Source: a bacterium | GTDB lineage: Bacteria > SAR324 > XYD2-FULL-50-16 | Reading direction: 5' to 3' | DNA: 64,000 nt | Assembly: GCA_032250835.1 (NCBI GenBank) | Contig: JAVVEA010000003.1 | Coordinates: 153,458-217,457 of the forward strand | Shown: positions 48,754 to 62,560 of the stretch, piece after piece | Position numbering within the stretch: position 1 is the first letter of the stretch | How the letters are laid out: each line of letters starts with the position of its first letter | Made by a program: the position numbers and the translations under genes | Notes under the pieces: generated by a model | Told to the model about the DNA's origin: nothing | The model's database searches: none | The model's input: the letters and a program-made list of their open reading frames with translations, nothing else

Positions 48754-49404
48754 ATGATCAAAATCCTGTTAGCCGACGACCATAAAATCATGCGCGATGG
48801 CATGACCCTACTGATGCAACGCGAGGGTGACCTAGAAGTGGTCGCCGAAGCGGACGATGGGGAAGAAGCGGTCCGCTTGGCTTACCAAACCCGCCCCGAT
48901 GTGGTGTTGATGGACATCAACATGCCCGGCATGGACGGAATTGAAGCAACCCGTAAGATTTTGGCCGAACTACCCGAAGCCCGTGTGATCGCCCTAACCA
49001 GCCACACCGAAGGCAAAATGGTGCAGGAGATGTTCCGCGCCGGGGCACTGGCCTTTTTAGGCAAAAACTGCTCGAACCAAGAGATTTTAGATGCCGTACG
49101 CTCGGTGATGACCGAGAAGTATTACATCAGCGAGGAGATGACCGGGAAGGTGATCGAAGACTTTGTGTTGCAACACATCCCGCAGATCACCGAAGTGAGC
49201 GACAAACTGACGAACCGCGAAAAAGAAGTGCTGCGCATGATCGCCGAGGGATTTTCCACCAAGAAAATCGCCGAGACACTTAACTTAAGCAGCAAAACCG
49301 TCGGTGCCCACCGCGAAAACCTGATGAAGAAATTAGACCTACACAACGTAGCCCAGCTAACCCGCTACGCCATCCAAAAAGGCCTGATCTCGCTGCATCC
49401 TTAA
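48754..49404 (+). CDS. NarL/FixJ-family response regulator
   Basis: LLADDH, VVLMDINMP, LTNREKEVL...HRENLMKKL. Confidence 0.93.
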   Translation: MIKILLADDHKIMRDGMTLLMQREGDLEVVAEADDGEEAVRLAYQTRPDVVLMDINMPGMDGIEATRKILAELPEARVIALTSHTEGKMVQEMFRAGALAFLGKNCSNQEILDAVRSVMTEKYYISEEMTGKVIEDFVLQHIPQITEVSDKLTNREKEVLRMIAEGFSTKKIAETLNLSSKTVGAHRENLMKKLDLHNVAQLTRYAIQKGLISLHP

Positions 49405-49687
49405 AAAACGCCCTGCGTTTTCCTCGGCCAGGGGCTCCGCCGGTGCCCCTACCAGCCTCCTTCGGCCTATCCCTAGGCCACTCGTTCCCTAAAATAGAAA
49501 AACATTGTGGCCACCAAGGGGCACTTGCTTCTGTGGCTTTGCGGTGCGCCTGAGGTTTCTCTAGACGGCCCTTTGTTGAGCTCATCTCAAGTTCAACGCT
49601 CTGATTCGACTTGGAACTCTTGGGTTTCCATAGTAGCTTATTTTTCAGATGAATAGAGGCTTCAACACACCCAGCACTCAACCTCCT

Positions 49688-52600
49688 ATGGCCGTCCCTC
49701 TAATCCGTAGCTTTACCCCCTATGTGGAGCCCTCAAGGTCATCTGAATATTTTGGTTTATCGGCAACCAACCTTAATTGGGAGACTTTACTTGCCTCGCC
49801 TCATGTCATTATTTTGGGGCAACCGGGGGTGGGGAAGACCTTTGAGATGCGGCAGGCGGCTGATCAGCTTCATCTGGAGAACAAAGAGCTTTTCTACTGT
49901 ACCGCTACTGACGTCTTACTTAGAAGGCCCTTGCAGGTGCCTGATCAGCCTCGATTTCAACAAGCTCAGGAGCAGGGCAAAGGTTTAGTTTTTTTGATCG
50001 ACTCATTGGACGAGGGCAACTTGCTTCCTCAAGGTGGCAAGGTAAGGACGCTTTTTGAGGCCTTTTACCGTTCGCCTGATCTTGGCCAAGTGGACAAAAA
50101 ACAGTTACATTGGGTGATTTCAGTGCGGCCAACCTATTGGGCCTTACTCCCAGATCGGGAGCTCGCCCAGGACTACGCATTTGCTACGCCGCGAAAACAT
50201 ACCGATGCCGGGCTAGGCGAAACTGAAGCGCACAAAGAGAGCGAAGAAAAAGCCGAGGCGCTTCGGGTTTCCCGGCCAGAAAAGAGTGAAGCCCGCCTTC
50301 TTGAAGTCACCCTCAACCCATTGGATTACGAACAAGTAAAAGCCTATTGTCATCAGATGTTCCCTCAAGACGGTGGTGATTTTTTTCGGGCCATGGAAAC
50401 ACAAGGGAAATGGGCTAATCTGCCGCGGGAAATCAAATATTGGTTCAACTTTTGGCGCAACAATGGCTCCTTTGGGACCCGAAAGGAGCGGATGAAGGAC
50501 TATTGCGCTACTTTGCTGGACGAGGCCAACGAAGACCTCAGAGTGGGCATACCCGATGCCCAAAAGTTGGCAAGTCGACTAGCAGCTGCTTTGGTTTTAG
50601 TAGAAGTTGGGCAATTGGCCCCGGTTGATAGGGACTCAGATAAGGGTCTGGATTTGTCTATAATGCTTCCCGAGTTGCCTACCGCTCGCCAATTAACTTC
50701 CCTTATAGACAGGGCCGCATTTAAAGACTCGGGAACCAACGTTGCCTTTGTCGACACCGAGGTACGCGATTTTTTAGCCGCTTGCTGGATTTTTGAGCAG
50801 TCCAAAGTGGGACCGGCTTACGAACTGTGCGAGTTCTTTTTTGCTTCCTCAGAAATAGGTCCACTGGCTAACCGGAAAGTACCTGAAGTCCTGGCTTGGA
50901 TCGGTCAGTTTGAGCAAGGACCCCGGTTCTTTCGACCCCTCCTAAATGCGGCACCCGACCTGTTGATCAGTCAGGGCGATCCAGCATTGTTGTCAGACTC
51001 CAACCTGAAACTAGTACTCGAAGCGATCCGCCATTTTCCGTACAATCTGGTGCAGGGCTACCGCGCACCAGCTATCCGGAACCAACTCAGTCAGTCAATA
51101 GGTCGCCTTTCATTGATGGACTATTATCAAGAGGTGATTGAAGACATTGTCTGCCCCCCTGGTTTACGTACACTCTTGCTACAAGTGGTTTCGCTTTCTC
51201 AACCGGCTCGCTTTGGCAAGTTAGCTGCAGATATTATCCAAGACGAAAACCAGCCATACCCATGCCGTTATGCAGCGGTAGACATTTGCGAGAAAGCCGC
51301 AGATTCTGACGTGTTCACTTCCCTGCGCGAGTACTTTTTGGTCTTGCCCGTGACGGTTTCCCAGCAACTCCGCCTGGATCTATTAGAACTTTTATATCCT
51401 CAGCATCTATCGGTCGAGGAAGTGCTCGCTTTTTTTAAAGGTGGGGACCTCAGGTTGGGCAACACTTTCCTGACGGATAGGGACTATCTAGTTAAAGGCG
51501 TAGCGGATCAAACAAAAGACGAAGACCTATTGGAATTTTTTAGAGGTTTGGCAAACCTCATAGCGGACATAAAAAAGCCCTTGGAATCGCCAACCGGGCT
51601 CCAAACCAAAGAGCAATACAGGTGGGCGTTAGCCACCTTGGGCGCTGTATTCGAGCGATTATTTCTCACGTGGGATGAAGGGCAAAGCATAGCCCCTTTG
51701 GGAGATGCTGTTCGAACTCTTTCTGCGCTGGGGTTACATGGCCGGACCAAGCAATGGTCGTTTGAAGCCGCCTATAGTACGCGCCCAGAACTACGAAAAC
51801 AGCTCATAACAGCGGCCCTTTGGTCAACACCGGAACGGTTTTACGGGCGCTATTTTTACAGCGCCCTATATTTAACTGAAAGTGACCTCGCATGGATATT
51901 ACCCAAAATTGGTATTCAAGAAAATGAGGCAATTGATATAAGTCTGTGGGATTTAGCGCGGTCCTTCGTAGATTCAGAAGGTCTGCAAATACATAAAGAG
52001 CAACTATTGCAGCAATCTCGCGATAAACCTCGTCTACATCAAACACTCCGAAATTACCTCGATGCGCCCAAGCAACAGCCCCTTAAGTTGCCAGATTTAG
52101 GATCTCAATTAGAGTACGATATTCGCTTTCAAGCTGGCTTCAAACAGTGTCAAGAATTGCTTCCTCATCTTCAAGCCATCGAGACTGACGCAAAAGGGGA
52201 TTTGTTAATGCGTGTCTGGGATTTTGCCGAGGAGTACCGAAATTTCTCGGGTTCAAACCGGTCAGAAATTCCTATCGACCGATTCGATTTTGAACCAAAA
52301 GAGTTAAGCCGAGCTTTCCGCAAGGGGCTAGTTTTTTACTTTGAACATTTTGCCGCCACGCAGCCGACACCAGACAGTTCCACTTACGGTGACGTGTTAG
52401 CCTTGGTAGCATGTCAGTTGATCGCTTCGGTAGAAGGTGTACAAGCATTCGACCAATATAGGGCTCGCAAGGCTCTGCAACTTGGTTTTTACGAACTCAA
52501 CCAGTTTCCTTGGTGGTGGACATCACTAGCTTCTCGACATTTTGGGGTCCTTGAGGAAATCTTACCGCCTCTTTTCGAAGCAGAAATGAGAGCAACAGGG

Positions 52601-53989
52601 ACTGAAGAAAGGCCGCGACATGCACAAGTACTCAATCATTTTTCGGCTCTAGCGCTTGAATATTCTATCAAGCAAGAAATGCCGAAGGAATCAAAGTCAG
52701 GAAACGACCTGTTTGGGCAGGAGGACCGTTCTCTCACAGAATCCGAGTTGGAGCTGCAACATGCATTAAGTGCCTGTGCAGCCTCCATGCTTTGGCCGCT
52801 GTTTCAAACTATCCCCCCAAAATCAGTACATATTTTGGAGGCTGCACTGGCCATTTTACTTCCTCATTTTGGGAGCGATCCAAAACTAGTCCAGTTAATT
52901 TCCCAGCGGGCGCAGAACGAAGGAACACCCCAAGACGGGAAAATCGCCCAAAAATATTGGTCTGCTTGGCTGCGGTTGGAACCTAAATCTTGTTGGATTG
53001 CGGTTCGAAAAATATTGCCTGAGGACCTTCCAGTTAAGCAGGCGGTTTTGGAAGCGGTTTTTGATCACTCCTACCACGAAGCACATGATCAACGGGTCAA
53101 CTGGCTTGGTAGTCTAAGCGTGAACTTGCTGGACGAAATGCTGATTGCTTTTGCTACGGCATTTCTTTACGAGACGGATCCACGCAGAGAAAGAGTTCGG
53201 GTCCTTACCAGGACAAGGACAGGGATTGAGACTCGCGACCAGTTACTGCAGACTTTGGGTACGCATACCGATTCCGTTGCGGCCTACAACTCTTTGCTTG
53301 GTTTATTGCAAAATCCCCTTTTTCAGGGGAGGTATTACGAAATATCGGGGCATTTGGCGAGTATAAGAGGATTCCTATATTCACCAGCCCCCTGGAAGGC
53401 ATCCGACGTTTTGGAGTTCGAGCACTCCCACACCCACCAACCTAAAGACGCTCAACAGTTCTTCAAGCAAATCTGCAACCGCGTTGAGATGGCTCAAGAG
53501 CGCCTCCTTATAAGCGACTTTGCGCCCATGTATTTGATCAACAACAAAGCCTCCGAAGCGGACTTTCAGTTCTGGCTAAGTGATCAACTGGACCACAACT
53601 CCAATGGGTACCATGTGGGGATGGAGGAGATGAAATCCAACCGAAACCGCCGTGACATCACAGTAAGCCGTTCAAGTGAGCAGGGCCACTGGACCGTTGT
53701 CGTTGAAGCCAAATTGATCGAAGGCTCTAGATACAGTGCAAACGATCTTTTTTCGGCGCTAGAAAAACAGCTAGTAGAGCGCTACTTAGTAGGACCTGAA
53801 TCCGAGAAGAAAGGGGGCATCCTCTGGGTCGTCAAAAAACGCGATAAGACGTTCCTCTGGGAAGGCGAGACCTTGGAGTTTGCGGAGTTGATTGCCCGGC
53901 TCAACGAAAGAGCACAAGCCCTTGCCCGAGAAAAGGGGCTGGTGGGGTTGCGGGTTATGGGGGTTGATTTGAGGTCCAGCCGCATTTGA
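49688..53989 (+). CDS. Large NACHT/STAND NTPase with putative C-terminal restriction-endonuclease-like domain
   Basis: Walker A GQPGVGKT, Walker B FLIDSLDE, ISVRP; C-terminal RRDITV...VVVEAKL; start could be 49649. Confidence 0.75.
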   Translation: MAVPLIRSFTPYVEPSRSSEYFGLSATNLNWETLLASPHVIILGQPGVGKTFEMRQAADQLHLENKELFYCTATDVLLRRPLQVPDQPRFQQAQEQGKGLVFLIDSLDEGNLLPQGGKVRTLFEAFYRSPDLGQVDKKQLHWVISVRPTYWALLPDRELAQDYAFATPRKHTDAGLGETEAHKESEEKAEALRVSRPEKSEARLLEVTLNPLDYEQVKAYCHQMFPQDGGDFFRAMETQGKWANLPREIKYWFNFWRNNGSFGTRKERMKDYCATLLDEANEDLRVGIPDAQKLASRLAAALVLVEVGQLAPVDRDSDKGLDLSIMLPELPTARQLTSLIDRAAFKDSGTNVAFVDTEVRDFLAACWIFEQSKVGPAYELCEFFFASSEIGPLANRKVPEVLAWIGQFEQGPRFFRPLLNAAPDLLISQGDPALLSDSNLKLVLEAIRHFPYNLVQGYRAPAIRNQLSQSIGRLSLMDYYQEVIEDIVCPPGLRTLLLQVVSLSQPARFGKLAADIIQDENQPYPCRYAAVDICEKAADSDVFTSLREYFLVLPVTVSQQLRLDLLELLYPQHLSVEEVLAFFKGGDLRLGNTFLTDRDYLVKGVADQTKDEDLLEFFRGLANLIADIKKPLESPTGLQTKEQYRWALATLGAVFERLFLTWDEGQSIAPLGDAVRTLSALGLHGRTKQWSFEAAYSTRPELRKQLITAALWSTPERFYGRYFYSALYLTESDLAWILPKIGIQENEAIDISLWDLARSFVDSEGLQIHKEQLLQQSRDKPRLHQTLRNYLDAPKQQPLKLPDLGSQLEYDIRFQAGFKQCQELLPHLQAIETDAKGDLLMRVWDFAEEYRNFSGSNRSEIPIDRFDFEPKELSRAFRKGLVFYFEHFAATQPTPDSSTYGDVLALVACQLIASVEGVQAFDQYRARKALQLGFYELNQFPWWWTSLASRHFGVLEEILPPLFEAEMRATGTEERPRHAQVLNHFSALALEYSIKQEMPKESKSGNDLFGQEDRSLTESELELQHALSACAASMLWPLFQTIPPKSVHILEAALAILLPHFGSDPKLVQLISQRAQNEGTPQDGKIAQKYWSAWLRLEPKSCWIAVRKILPEDLPVKQAVLEAVFDHSYHEAHDQRVNWLGSLSVNLLDEMLIAFATAFLYETDPRRERVRVLTRTRTGIETRDQLLQTLGTHTDSVAAYNSLLGLLQNPLFQGRYYEISGHLASIRGFLYSPAPWKASDVLEFEHSHTHQPKDAQQFFKQICNRVEMAQERLLISDFAPMYLINNKASEADFQFWLSDQLDHNSNGYHVGMEEMKSNRNRRDITVSRSSEQGHWTVVVEAKLIEGSRYSANDLFSALEKQLVERYLVGPESEKKGGILWVVKKRDKTFLWEGETLEFAELIARLNERAQALAREKGLVGLRVMGVDLRSSRI

Positions 53990-54054
53990 CCGTATCGGTC
54001 TTACGCTTGGCTATCGAGAAGAAATGGCAAAATTCGCCACCTGCTCCCAAAATC

Positions 54055-54456
54055 CTACCGGATATTATGTTCCTTAAAAAGCGGAATGTACTTTTGGTCT
54101 TCGCCTAAGATGTGGCTGACGAGCCAGTCGGTCATGAAGGTCATGACGTCCACGCCAATCATGAAATTGCTGCTGCTGTCGAACTGGCTTTTTAACTCGT
54201 GCAGTTTGCGGGTGAAGCTTTCGTGCTTGGCTAAGTGGTCTTCGGCGCGTTCGTAGCCGATCTGTGCGAAGATTTCGGCTTCGTGCGAAAAGTGATCTTC
54301 GGTGTATTCTAGCAGCCCTTTAAAGATGTCTTGCAGTACCGCTTTCGATTCGCCTTGGCCCATGGCGGTCTGCAATTGCGCAATTAGGCCGAAGAGTTTC
54401 TGGTGCTGTTGGTCAATGGTGCCGATCCCTACGGCGAGGCTTTCATCCCACTTCAT
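54055..54456 (-). CDS. Bacteriohemerythrin
   Basis: WDESLAVG..IDQQH, HFSHE, HLAKH, WLVSHILGED. Confidence 0.93.
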   Translation of the reverse strand: MKWDESLAVGIGTIDQQHQKLFGLIAQLQTAMGQGESKAVLQDIFKGLLEYTEDHFSHEAEIFAQIGYERAEDHLAKHESFTRKLHELKSQFDSSSNFMIGVDVMTFMTDWLVSHILGEDQKYIPLFKEHNIR

Positions 54457-54716
54457 TGGTACCAATCTACAAATCTGTAATTGCGTAAAATTAGGCCGAA
54501 CCCAAAAGGCCCCACCTTTGGAGAGAGCCCAGGCTAACCTACCCGAATCAGGCTGGCAACGGTCCAATTAACATCTAGTCAAGCAGATTACCTAAAGCTT
54601 TGAATCCGGGGGCCTTTTGTTAGCCTAAGCGGCCCTTGCCTGGACGCCTGTTTTTGCGGTAGGCCATAAGACACAAAGGCGGCAGTCGAGCCTTTTGCCA
54701 AAAAATTAGGAGCAAC

Positions 54717-56055: not shown

Positions 56056-57456
56056 GTGAGGCGATACCTTTTAAATGCGGCGCTGCTAAGCAGCGGTGCC
56101 AGTGGGGCCGTTCTTTGGATCGCCTCTAACCGAATGTTAGCCCCCTGGTTTGGCTTGAGCGACAGCGGAGCGGCCTTGACCTCGGTGCTGCTGCTGGCCG
56201 CCGGACTGGGCGCTTGGCTGGGCGGTTGGGCGGTCGAGCACAGGCCCCAGGGATTACTGTTAACCCACAACATGACGGCCTTGGCGCTGGCCTGCCTGGC
56301 GGTCCCTAGTTTACGTGCGGGACTTAGCTCACTGTTCGGGCAGCCCAGCCTGTTGGCTAGCCCCTGGTTGGCCTCGATCCTGCTTTTTGGTTTGCCCGCT
56401 GCGGCTGGGGGGTTTTTGATGCCTCTGCTGTTGCGCCTGGGTTTGTTGTGGCAAGGGGACCGGGCCTTGGGTGCGGGGCTCGGCAGGCTGTTGGGGAAGC
56501 AGTTGCTGGGATGCTGGCTGGGCTATTGGTTGGGACGGTATGGCCTGTTGCCTTGGCTGCGGATCGACGGCATCTTTTTAGGTCTGGGGCTCATTTGGGG
56601 GGTCTTGGCCTGCTGGGGGTATGTACTCTGGGCCCCGGGACGCTTTTCTAAGGGGAATTTGAGTCTCCTGGCGGTTTTGGCCGGGCTTTTGGCCACTTCC
56701 GGCGGGACGCTGGCCCGATTGCCGCTGCCCGAAGGGGTGGCTGCTGATCTCCAAGGGCCTGACGCCCGTTAACGATTGATCCACCGTACTGACCCCGAGG
56801 CCCCCAGTTGGACCTTGTGGCGCGACCTTGAGCGAGTCGAGCAGGTAGGTTCGGAACCCGAACTTTTGGCTTGGGAATTGGCCGCTTGGGCAGGCCCGAT
56901 GCCTCGGCAGGTTTTGTTGTGGGGCCCCGGCAGTCTGGCTTGGGCGGTGCAAATCAGGTCCCGTTTTCCCTCGGCCCAGTTGACTTGGCTCAACCCCGAG
57001 GCGGCCTGGGTGGAACTGGCCCAGCGGCTACCGGGCGGGGAGGCCTTGGTGCGCCGCCAAGCGGACCCACGCCAATGGTTGGCCGGGCACCGCCAAAGTT
57101 ATGATTGGATCTTATCGGCCCAGGGACCCCGCCCCCCGGCAGCTTGGGCGAGCCAAGAGTTTTACCGGCTAGTGGCCAACCGCTTGACCCGCGAGGGGGT
57201 GTTTTTAACCGCTTTGGAGTCCCCCCGTGCCAGCCCGCTGAGCCGGTCCACCTCGGCTACTTTGGGCCGCGTGTTTGGCCATCGGCAGGAGTTTTTAGGT
57301 CCCCTGGGGCCGGTATGGCTGGCAGCGCCGCGCCCCTTTGGTCAAACCTCGAGCCCCGAAGCGTTGTCCTTTAAGCCCCAACCCTTGGGCCAGGAATCGG
57401 GTGCGGAGATTTTTAGCGATTTAGAAGCGCCGCTTGCGCGGCTAACATTACCTTAA
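56056..57456 (+). pseudogene. Fused membrane/spermidine-synthase-like protein split by in-frame TAA at 56770-56772
   Basis: both ORFs in same frame; TM half (RMLAPWFGLS) and degenerate methyltransferase half (SQEFYRLVANRLTREGVF). Confidence 0.6.
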
Positions 57457-60418: not shown

Positions 60419-60598
60419 TGTTTATACCCAATATCGCGTTTTTTCCAAAATTAGCCTAAACAGTCTAGAACCAGTCGTAAAGCCAAAGAAACGAACTTAG
60501 GAGATTTGCCTAGGGAGAAATTCCGTTTACCTGCGAGCGGCTTTGTTCTACACTCGTCCACAGCCTTAAGACCCAGTCAACCTCGAGGACTTCAGAAT

Positions 60599-62560
60599 AT
60601 GCGCGTCGAAAATCAAGCGCTAAAGCGATTGCTGGCGGTGAGCCCTCTCGCCGAGGCCTACGCTAAAGAAGCCTTCATCAACATGGGGGAGCAGCTCGAC
60701 GAGAAGCTGGCTGACTACCTCCACAAAACCGTGGTTTCTTATTCCAAACTGACGACCATCAAGGACCGCATCTTCGGGGCCCGTGACATTGGCGACAAGT
60801 TGGAAGTGGCGCTGGACTTGATGCCCACCCTGATCTTTACGGCCCCCTTCCGGTTTAAAGCCGAAGGCCGTCCCGCTGTGGCGCTGCGGCAGCTTCACAT
60901 CGCCGTATTGGACGCGGCCATGAACCGCTACCGAGAATCTACCAACTTCCAAACCGAGTTTTTTAAGTCCATCCCTTTTTCGATCAAACAAGCGGAATTG
61001 GACCAGAAAATGGACTTGGACAAGGGGGATGAGACCTTTTTGCCCCGTCAGGTGATGCTGGAGATGATCCAGGTAGCCCAGGGCTTTTTGCGGCTGCCCA
61101 AGAGCGGCAAGCGCAATGAGTTGATCGAGCAATATTACATCTACCAAGCGACGACCCAGATTTTTTTCCAGTTTTATTTTGAGCTGATCACCAAGGCCCC
61201 TTCGGACATGGTGGTGGCACTGATCGAAAAGATCTTTGCTTATCTTTTGGCGGCCCTGCGGCGCTTTGAGATCTTGCACTTCATGCAATCTGACGTCTCG
61301 AGTGATCAGATCGAATTTTGGATCGAAAAGGACGCCGCCAATGCGCGCCACCCGATGCTGCGCAAACACATCTTCTCATATGCCGCCAACTACAGCCCGC
61401 TACTGCGCGCCGGGGGGCAACAGGCCCTATCGGCGAACGGCCAGCGGTTGCTACAGATCCAAATCGAAGCGATCAAACAAATGGGTGTGGCCCGCTTGAC
61501 CTTGTTGCTCAAAAGCCTGCGGCGCTACCGGGGAAAGGGGCCGATAAAGTTTATTTTGGCCCAGTTGCAACGAAGCCAGATGGACCTATTAGAATCGCTA
61601 TTAGAACATCTGCAAAATACCGAAGACGCCGAGGAACAAGACATTTTGCGCATGGCCGCCGCACTGGGTAAAAACTTACGGGGCAAATCAGCGCAGAAAC
61701 AGAATTCCGGAGCGACCGGTAAGGTGTTGGCTTCGGCCGAAGCGCAGCGACTGGTGTCCGCCAAGCGGAATCTGGCCAATATGGACACCTCGAAGATGCT
61801 CAACCAGCACAAGATTGCGGATTACCTCAAAGAGCAACTCAAGAAGGTCTACGAGCGGGCCCGCAAAGAAGGGGCCATGACCAAAGACAAGATCCCCAAG
61901 TACTTAGCCTCCTTCGCCGATAGTTCCTCAACGGTGCTTTCGAAGCCGCGCATGGCACCGTCGGAAGTCGAAGAATTTGTGGCCAGTACGGACCAAATAT
62001 TAGAGGAAATCGTTAGTTCCGCAGGGCTGACCGAAGCCGAGTTGCAGGATACCCGCGAGAGCATCACGACGCAGTCCAAGGCCCTATTGACCGCCGAAAC
62101 GGTCGAGGAAAAGGCCGAAATCTTAAACAGCATCGGTGATAAACTGATGGACGCCCAAAATCAGGCAGAAGAAAAACTGCCCGAAGCAGAGCGCCAGCAA
62201 GTTAAATTTGAGAAATTAAAGGACTCAAAAATCATCTCTATTGGGTTCGAGGAATTCAGCCCTTCGATTACCGTTGCTGAGCTCATGAGCTTTCCGCTAG
62301 GGACCAAAGAGGCGGCTAACGAAGAAGAATGGTTTAAGTGTCACTTAAGTTACTTGCATATCTTGGCAGACCATTCCAAAATCGATAAAGAGAAGTTGGA
62401 CAACATCGAGGCCGTTAAAGACCGGTTCCCCAAAATCCGGTACAAAAAGTACTTCGATATTTTTCCTAACAATAAGTTTGATGACTCTGTTTTGAGCGCA
62501 GTTTATTCCTTGTGGGAAAACAACGGGTTAGAGCGCTTGAGACTGGACCAATCTGCCTGA
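60599..62560 (+). CDS. Large helical hypothetical protein
   Basis: 653-aa ORF with host-like codon usage; no recognised motif. Confidence 0.75.
   Translation: MRVENQALKRLLAVSPLAEAYAKEAFINMGEQLDEKLADYLHKTVVSYSKLTTIKDRIFGARDIGDKLEVALDLMPTLIFTAPFRFKAEGRPAVALRQLHIAVLDAAMNRYRESTNFQTEFFKSIPFSIKQAELDQKMDLDKGDETFLPRQVMLEMIQVAQGFLRLPKSGKRNELIEQYYIYQATTQIFFQFYFELITKAPSDMVVALIEKIFAYLLAALRRFEILHFMQSDVSSDQIEFWIEKDAANARHPMLRKHIFSYAANYSPLLRAGGQQALSANGQRLLQIQIEAIKQMGVARLTLLLKSLRRYRGKGPIKFILAQLQRSQMDLLESLLEHLQNTEDAEEQDILRMAAALGKNLRGKSAQKQNSGATGKVLASAEAQRLVSAKRNLANMDTSKMLNQHKIADYLKEQLKKVYERARKEGAMTKDKIPKYLASFADSSSTVLSKPRMAPSEVEEFVASTDQILEEIVSSAGLTEAELQDTRESITTQSKALLTAETVEEKAEILNSIGDKLMDAQNQAEEKLPEAERQQVKFEKLKDSKIISIGFEEFSPSITVAELMSFPLGTKEAANEEEWFKCHLSYLHILADHSKIDKEKLDNIEAVKDRFPKIRYKKYFDIFPNNKFDDSVLSAVYSLWENNGLERLRLDQSA

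Follow-up and report, generated by a model that had tools for sequence, protein, structure and literature searches.

The question raised by this locus is what a single long gene, standing between metabolic and regulatory genes, does for a bacterium of the SAR324 lineage (XYD2-FULL-50-16). The window analyzed here is the whole stretch of 64,000 nucleotides from contig JAVVEA010000003.1 (assembly GCA_032250835.1, positions 153,458 to 217,457), and the gene lies on its + strand at 49688..53989, as do all the protein features given below. A first-pass annotation, made from the letters and the translated open reading frames, had read the product as an NLR-like STAND ATPase whose C-terminal part is a nuclease-like effector, and thus as a candidate anti-phage system. 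Our analysis indicates that its product is probably an NLR-like antiphage receptor made of one protein, which is of the Avs10 type (Hypnos/Erebus/bNACHT64) and stands on a deep side branch of the Hypnos (HyoA) lineage. The residues are numbered throughout from position 49649, which gives a frame of 1446 residues.

Among the profile libraries tried, the protein was recognised by the newer NCBIfam models only. The model NF058534, named 'NACHT domain-containing antiphage protein HyoA', aligned residues 37-1442 with profile positions 26-1428 of 1430 in one stretch (E 5.1e-121, 405.5 bits). The model NF058535 (EruA) gave 104 bits (E 5.3e-30) in three stretches covering residues 214-864 only. We take HyoA to be the protein of the Hypnos system and EruA that of Erebus. 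An exhaustive homologue search with residues 248-1446 as the query returned 745 cluster representatives at E <= 0.001, 334 of them at E <= 1e-10, and nearly all of these representatives were 1400-1450 residues long and shared 22-32% identity with the query. A word-indexed homologue search found one protein only (P0002), and a single-protein search of the genome contigs for related loci yielded no relative.

The HyoA model matched all 26 relatives scanned against NCBIfam, namely 25 representatives from the exhaustive search and P0002. The 25 representatives scored 419-1427 bits and two of them, P0030 (1427 bits) and P0060 (1325 bits), passed the equivalog cut-off. The score nearest to that of the window protein was the 419 bits of P0005, which is the truncated homologue from another genome of the phylum (G002). 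These profile matches place the window protein in the Hypnos/Erebus (Avs10-type) family, as a divergent member and not as a HyoA equivalog. The nearest clusters in the ESM Atlas carry PF28130 (DUF8371, Pfam 38.1) on 15-68% of their members; the local Pfam scans gave no match to this family.

The protein's N-terminal part is a nucleoside triphosphatase (NTPase) module whose predicted structure is of the NACHT type, with nucleotide-binding, helical and winged-helix subdomains. It covers residues 45-495 approximately (49781..51133, approximate boundaries). An AlphaFold2 model of residues 14-633 had a mean predicted local distance difference test score (pLDDT) of 84.6 and a predicted template modelling score (pTM) of 0.84. 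When this model was searched with Foldseek against the PDB, ranks 1-29 were all NLR-family entries, and the matches to NLRP5, NLRP2, NLRP3, NLRP7, NOD2, NLRP14, NLRC4 and NLRP1 had E values of 1e-8 to 1e-6; Avs4 ranked 30th and EfAvs5 43rd. The top nine rows of VIA-align were NACHT NLR entries (Z 9.7-12.2). The individual scores were Z 12.2 for NLRP3, 11.9 for NLRC4, 10.4 for NOD2, 9.3 for Avs5 and 8.5 for Avs4, with alignments confined to about the first 480 residues of the model. The NLR-like STAND ATPase proposed in the first-pass annotation is therefore upheld by the modelled fold.

The motifs of this module agree with the fold. NACHT proteins are defined by a Walker A motif GxxxxGK[ST] and by a Walker B motif followed by an acidic pair, hhhhDxxDE. 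Both were found in the window protein, as the P-loop GQPGVGKT (residues 57-64, 49817..49840) and as FLIDSLDE with its extra acidic pair (residues 115-122, 49991..50014; D118, D121 and E122). Across 53 sequences G62, K63, E66, D121, E122 and R160 were invariant and D118 nearly so, and this catalytic set is kept in the window protein. The invariant R160 belongs to the motif VISVRP (50114..50131) and we take it, following the NACHT literature, to be the sensor-1-like arginine. A charged insertion in the nucleotide-binding domain, at residues 185-212 approximately (50201..50284), had a pLDDT below 50 (model residues 172-199) and a column occupancy of 0.42 across 148 family sequences. It is probably disordered, as judged from the model, and the alignment suggests that it is mostly absent from the relatives and so largely particular to the window protein. 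Pfam gave sub-threshold P-loop and STAND matches only, at residues 44-125.

The C-terminus, about residues 1265-1446 (53441..53986), was assigned to the PD-(D/E)xK (restriction-endonuclease-like) domains by AlphaFold2 and VIA-align. The model of residues 1141-1446, built with 52 relatives, had a mean pLDDT of 87.6 and displayed a helical stalk followed by a core. The core elements were ordered helix-strand-strand-strand-helix-strand (model residues H163-176, E182-185, E197-203, E206-217, H224-240 and E248-256). D1336 (model D196) sits immediately ahead of core strand 2, and the pair E1353 and K1355 (model E213 and K215) is part of strand 3. The model thus has the alpha-beta-beta-beta-alpha-beta core, with an aspartate at strand 2 and ExK in strand 3, that defines this class of nucleases.

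The catalytic signature consists of E1303, E1326, D1336 and E1353-A-K1355 (53555..53713), with E1303 at 53555-53557, D1336 at 53654-53656 and E1353-A-K1355 at 53705-53713. D1336 falls within RRDITV (residues 1334-1339, 53648-53665) and the ExK element within VVVEAK (residues 1350-1355, 53696-53713). Conservation was examined in the last 300 residues of 150 members, comprising the window protein and 149 relatives. E1303, D1336, E1353, K1355 and Y1379 were invariant (150/150), E1326 and Q1374 were kept in 149 of the 150, and G1390 in 148.

The C-terminal model was also aligned by VIA-align with all 48,161 PDB representatives. The top matches, over model residues 125-306, were BamHI (Z 8.6), CdiA-CT DNases (Z 8.2 and 7.8) and Can2 (Z 7.7), followed by BstYI (Z 7.4) and McrC (Z 7.4, 21% identity), each nuclease score taken alone being middling by the calibration of VIA-align itself. 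Further matches included OkrAI, the LlaBIII nuclease, Cdn1, HamA, Card1, SduA and NucC. Foldseek results with the same model were weak and mixed with helical matches to acetyl-CoA carboxylase. No Pfam nuclease family was detected on residues 248-717, 718-1167 or 1168-1446, where P22_AR_C (E 0.0025) and DUF7623 (E 0.2) matched at chance level, and the window protein had no match among the PDB sequences. A prediction of a nuclease dimer from two copies of residues 1260-1446 scored 0.01 against a mark of 0.42 and counts neither way. Because the fold matches form a consistent set and the E-D-ExK motif is invariant, the assignment of the modelled C-terminus to the restriction-endonuclease fold is firm. 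The PD-(D/E)xK-like C-terminus that the first-pass annotation had pointed out was accordingly recovered, and all four of its motifs (GQPGVGKT, FLIDSLDE, RRDITV and VVVEAK) were located, the first at exactly 49817-49840.

Between the two modules lies a helical and poorly conserved middle, about residues 496-1264 (51134..53440), as defined by the models and the conservation. A long helical middle had been proposed before; this held for the parts of it that were modelled, about residues 438-633 and 1141-1300. The mean top-residue frequency was 0.26-0.32 in the middle (0.26-0.27 across residues 496-1100) and 0.41-0.42 in the NTPase and nuclease modules. A weak alphaRep/HEAT-like repeat match was found at positions 514-558 of the family profile, and the only matches of this profile among the PDB sequences were of the alphaRep type, with E values of 0.012 or weaker. 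Conserved ends with a variable middle are a pattern that fits a receptor, and the middle is presumed to be the sensor. This presumed sensor is homologous to that of HyoA and not swapped, because the HyoA profile runs through the middle unbroken.

The placement of the protein within the family was analyzed with FastTree, using 149 sequences of at least 1100 residues and 1308 trimmed columns; three shorter representatives were excluded and the tree was rooted on the Erebus protein of G012, which shares its taxonomic family with the genome of the window. The window protein formed one clade with P0003, P0005 and P0009 (support 0.985), on the HyoA side of the EruA root. This four-member clade was sister to the other 143 HyoA-like representatives, whose own support as a clade was negligible (0.07). 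The terminal branch of the window protein was 1.72 substitutions per site, and its root-to-tip distance was ordinary (4.93 versus a median of 4.85). In this phylogeny, the window protein is a member of a small basal clade, that is, a deep and divergent side branch of the HyoA lineage.

The longest open reading frame at the locus extends from 49649 to 53989 on the + strand (1446 residues), 49649 being an alternative start. The start at 49688 (M14) appears the better one, because M1 and R7 of the resulting fragment fall in nearly invariant columns of an alignment with 52 relatives and because the ESM Atlas record of the window protein begins at the same residue. From this start the protein has 1433 residues, in line with the approximately 1430 estimated before, and the 4.3-kb frame is uninterrupted. 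The GC content of the gene was 0.494 compared with 0.547 for the genome (3.66 Mb), so that among 3545 genome windows of equal length it fell at the 2.7th percentile (lower than 97.3% of them), and its third-position GC content was 0.50 compared with 0.55-0.76 across 13 neighbouring genes. The gene is thus richer in AT than its neighbours, as the first reading had noticed. A scan for promoters and terminators around the gene gave nothing that exceeded the shuffled expectation; no promoter-like site was called in the upstream spacer (49405-49687) and no terminator-like site in the downstream spacer (53990-54054).

The gene is accessory, inserted and horizontally acquired. The HyoA profile matched three of 88 genomes of the phylum (one of 35 high-quality genomes), namely the genome of the window itself (G000), G002 and G012. 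The insertion site was readable, with both flank markers on one contig, in two relatives only (G003 and G007, from two related genera), and it was empty in both. In G003 the symporter gene comes directly after the response-regulator gene (91% identical); in G007 a gap of 35 bp separates the response-regulator gene from two hemerythrin genes, behind which lies the symporter gene. The presence and absence of the gene among relatives thus contradict a core or syntenic status. Together with the end-to-end match to an NCBI antiphage profile, this status as an accessory inserted gene lends support to its reading as a candidate anti-phage system.

The two junctions of the insert could be defined by comparison. 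The left junction is the spacer between the response-regulator gene and the insert (49405..49687, compared with G003 and G007), and the right junction is a 65-bp spacer (53990..54054) that leads to the convergent hemerythrin gene (54055-54567, - strand). No terminal repeats, target-site duplication or long direct repeat were found in the flanks, only short chance-type matches, and no mobile-element genes or tRNA-like landmarks flank the window copy. A direct 13-nt match (12/13) joins the 3' end of the response-regulator gene (49398-49410) with the 3' end of the hemerythrin gene (54071-54083), bracketing the insert; this is probably chance, many matches of similar length having occurred in the same scan. 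The hemerythrin copies vary, with one in the window, two in tandem in G007 (L006 5732-6574) and none in G003. Because their number differs between these three genomes, the interval from the response-regulator gene to the symporter gene is a variable spot.

The other homologues in the phylum have different surroundings. The homologue in G002, cut by a contig end, was 21% identical to the window protein, compared with 56-91% for housekeeping neighbours across these genomes, and it adjoins an rve-type transposase gene that has no counterpart in G000. The G000 and G002 copies are separate acquisitions. The gene in G012 (L005 8084-12052) is a true Erebus equivalog (EruA 1190.5 bits, cut-off 1000) and is located two genes from an Mrr endonuclease gene (L005 13490-14380). 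Its other flank carries a TOMM kinase/cyclase-like gene as well as two genes for adenylate/guanylate cyclases. Relatives were also found on plasmids, in 28 records of which 20 are predicted to be conjugative. Burkholderia accounted for 22 of the 28, and the rest were from Phaeobacter, Sulfitobacter, Klebsiella and Niveispirillum. The Klebsiella plasmid copy had an ATPase-helicase gene pair on one side and a SIR2 gene on the other, with WYL and antirestriction genes close by, and the Phaeobacter plasmid copy was solitary among metabolic genes.

Compared with Hypnos (HyoA), the window protein belongs to the same length class (1433 residues versus 1430 profile positions) and has the same order of N-terminal NACHT NTPase, helical middle and C-terminal PD-(D/E)xK domain. 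The family-invariant NTPase and nuclease residues are all present, and the gene is solo like the Phaeobacter plasmid copy. It differs in its score below the cut-off, in its low identity to relatives (21-31%), in its place in a four-member basal clade and in the disordered insertion of the nucleotide-binding domain. Erebus (EruA) has a homologous NACHT-nuclease architecture, with a much weaker match to the window protein and a profile about 110 positions shorter.

The domain order sets the protein apart from other Avs families. Avs3 and Avs4 carry the effector at the N-terminus, and the first-pass annotation had remarked that the order is reversed here. The reversal is real; it is not a peculiarity of this protein, being the standard layout of the 745-representative family. 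The reversed order is already known and normal for the named family, and no new class of system is represented. Avs1-4 and Avs7 are likewise STAND receptors consisting of one protein, which combine a helical sensor with, in many cases, a PD-(D/E)xK nuclease effector (Mrr- or Cap4-type), but in these the effector is N-terminal and the sensor C-terminal, whereas the window protein has its NTPase first and its nuclease last. It does not belong to Avs1-4, since its NTPase begins at about residue 45 without a preceding domain, its nuclease is C-terminal and no PADLOC model matches it. According to the accessible passages of a preprint, Avs1-4 and Avs7 are activated when they bind a conserved phage protein and then oligomerise (PMC12803255).

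The NTPases of Avs4 and Avs5 match the window module less well than those of animal NACHT NLRs do. The latter (NLRP3, NLRC4 and NOD2) gave the best fold matches and have the Walker B acidic pair in common with it, but the identity was 9-17% and the window protein carries no leucine-rich-repeat (LRR) sensor and no death-fold or CARD/PYD effector, having a nuclease instead. McrC, the Type II and Type IV enzymes, NucC, Can2, Card1 and HamA share the restriction-endonuclease core and E-D-ExK (Z 5.8-8.6). The window domain is fused to a NACHT receptor and not to a GTPase, a CARF or SAVED domain or a helicase partner, and no sequence-family tie between them and the window domain was detectable by Pfam nuclease families or PDB sequence matches.

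For the window protein itself, the domain architecture, both folds, the intact catalytic residues, the homology to HyoA and the inserted status are established. An antiphage function is likely by homology. The 2026 preprint 'Diverse bacterial pattern recognition receptors sense the conserved phage proteome' (PMC12803255), which refers for the Avs10 systems to Kibby 2023 (Cell) and to van den Berg 2024 (Cell Host Microbe), states in its accessible passages that the activator of Avs10 (Erebus/Hypnos/bNACHT64) is the phage major capsid protein. It also reports that cell death is abolished by mutations in the effector, and that the sensors of Avs7, Avs8 and Avs10 recognise the penton/hexon-forming interface of the capsid A-domain. 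By analogy, the NACHT module would keep the protein as an inactive monomer in the resting cell. Upon infection, the variable helical middle would bind a phage protein, which in the tested Avs10 systems is the HK97-fold major capsid protein. Binding would then bring about nucleotide exchange in the NACHT module and oligomerisation, and this in turn would assemble the C-terminal PD-(D/E)xK domains into an active DNA nuclease. The nuclease would degrade DNA and halt the infection, and the cell would be sacrificed. We hold that activation of the nuclease through oligomerisation is somewhat favoured by this analogy. The major capsid protein as the trigger is put forward tentatively, with less than even confidence.

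Several observations weigh against an Avs10-type antiphage receptor, or against parts of that reading. The Pfam NACHT family PF05729 scored 12.4 bits (E 0.14) and missed its gathering score of 26.7 bits; it matched six of the 26 relatives (E 1.5e-5 to 6.7e-4), all under the gathering score as well. The 405.5 bits obtained with NF058534 miss the equivalog cut-off of 1200 bits; all the other full-length members that were scored had higher HyoA values (635-1427 bits), and the identity of the relatives to the window protein was only 21-31%. The equation of HyoA with Hypnos and of EruA with Erebus is an assumption: no relevant literature was found under the gene symbols HyoA and EruA, and the accessible passages of PMC12803255 support just the grouping 'Avs10 (Erebus/Hypnos/bNACHT64)'. 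The candidate system of the first-pass annotation was also not recovered by PADLOC-DB v2.0.0, which gave 0 matches to the window protein at E <= 1. The gene does stand alone between unrelated genes, as had been said: its neighbours are genes for sugar-nucleotide enzymes, a hemerythrin, a Na/alanine symporter and a LuxR-type response regulator, the PADLOC scan gave no system-level defence match in the 61 other open reading frames of the window, and there is no defence island. A search of 50,697 phage records yielded no relative. The dinucleotide signature of the gene was ordinary, 36% of 716 genome windows deviating equally.

A further point is the sensor, where the identity of the relatives to the window protein was lowest (0.14-0.16). 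Because this identity is so low, the trigger could differ from that of the tested Avs10 proteins. The window protein may then be an antiphage NACHT-nuclease that responds to another phage protein or to a disturbed host factor, which we regard as possible though short of probable. Such a trigger would suit the low top-residue frequency of the sensor and the separation of the four-member basal clade from the 143 HyoA-like representatives. STAND families, and even single bNACHT proteins, are moreover described as sensing differing or multiple phage proteins or the perturbation of host chaperones (accessible passages of PMC12803255 and other abstracts). However, the HyoA profile aligns the whole middle in one stretch, and Avs sensors are stated in the same preprint to recognise folds across homologues without significant sequence similarity (PMC12803255, accessible passages). 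A stronger proposal, that the window protein and its three nearest representatives are a separate deep lineage, forming a distinct Avs-type family whose diverged sensor recognises a target other than the HK97 capsid, is rather unlikely in our view.

Other readings depart further from an Avs10-type receptor. A selfish or non-immune role, in mobile-element conflict, in an addiction module or in STAND signalling not aimed at phages, would be in keeping with the relatives on plasmids, most of them conjugative, with the transposase beside the G002 copy and with the position of the window copy outside any defence island; defence and non-defence STAND clades are also interspersed (PMC12803255, accessible passages). 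We consider it improbable, as the window copy has no flanking mobile-element genes, tRNA-like landmarks or terminal repeats, and as the invariant catalytic residues of the nuclease and the end-to-end homology to curated antiphage models indicate immunity. The resemblance of the nuclease model to McrC (Z 7.4, 21%), MspJI, AspBHI, the LlaBIII nuclease domain and classical Type II enzymes could instead point to a restriction-like enzyme of the McrBC/Type IV kind, which would sense nucleic acid and cut foreign or modified DNA without a protein trigger. However, the NTPase best matches NACHT NLRs and not McrB-type GTPases or helicases (no McrB was among the rows listed), Pfam detected no DNA-binding or modification-reading domain, and in the accessible passages of PMC12803255 a protein is reported as the activator of the tested relatives, so that this is a very improbable explanation. 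Least credible of all is the view that the gene, once acquired, has decayed or become inactive and has no present function. The very long terminal branch, the lowest HyoA score among full-length members and the extra disordered insertion could be signs of decay, but the frame is unbroken, every invariant catalytic residue is kept in both modules, both folded parts were modelled with confidence and the root-to-tip distance is ordinary.

Upstream of the inserted gene the window encodes a cytochrome c, a HAD hydrolase, a GFO/IDH/MocA oxidoreductase and a cytidylyltransferase, followed by the LuxR-type response regulator; downstream come the convergent hemerythrin gene, the genes of a Na/alanine symporter and an M28 peptidase, and one for a methylglyoxal synthase-like protein. 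The PADLOC matches in the window were generic, with a helix-turn-helix protein matching a CARF model, methyltransferases matching mad2 and an HD domain matching Cas3. Two GC-rich open reading frames of 238 and 226 residues (56056-57456, GC 0.63-0.64 compared with 0.547) without a Pfam match are located between the Na/alanine symporter and M28 peptidase genes. Because these two genes are adjacent or nearly so in G003 and G007, the pair suggests a second, separate insertion. G007 in turn has an extra open reading frame of 649 residues (L006 3026-4975) between the cytidylyltransferase and response-regulator genes, which is absent from the window. An open reading frame of 684 residues (60506-62560), also without a Pfam match, was found directly upstream of the gene for an HD-domain (HD-GYP-like) protein of 450 residues.

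What is particular to this locus is the divergence of the protein, its basal clade, its little-studied host phylum and the clean insertion of a single gene at a site that is empty in relatives. The host phylum is small and poorly studied, and to our knowledge no phage-host biology is known for it. An unannotated 4.3-kb 'hypothetical' gene thereby becomes a probable antiphage receptor. The current PADLOC models miss the whole family, which is caught by NCBIfam. The locus also provides a clean case of acquisition, in which one immune gene appears to have entered between two housekeeping genes with no visible scars of a mobile element. The protein is among the most divergent full-length relatives of Hypnos that were found, and it therefore tests how far capsid sensing and the activation of a C-terminal nuclease reach within the Avs10-type family. 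If the window protein and its three nearest representatives were in fact a separate lineage that senses another target than the capsid, they would make up a distinct Avs-type family with a new trigger and not another copy of Hypnos.

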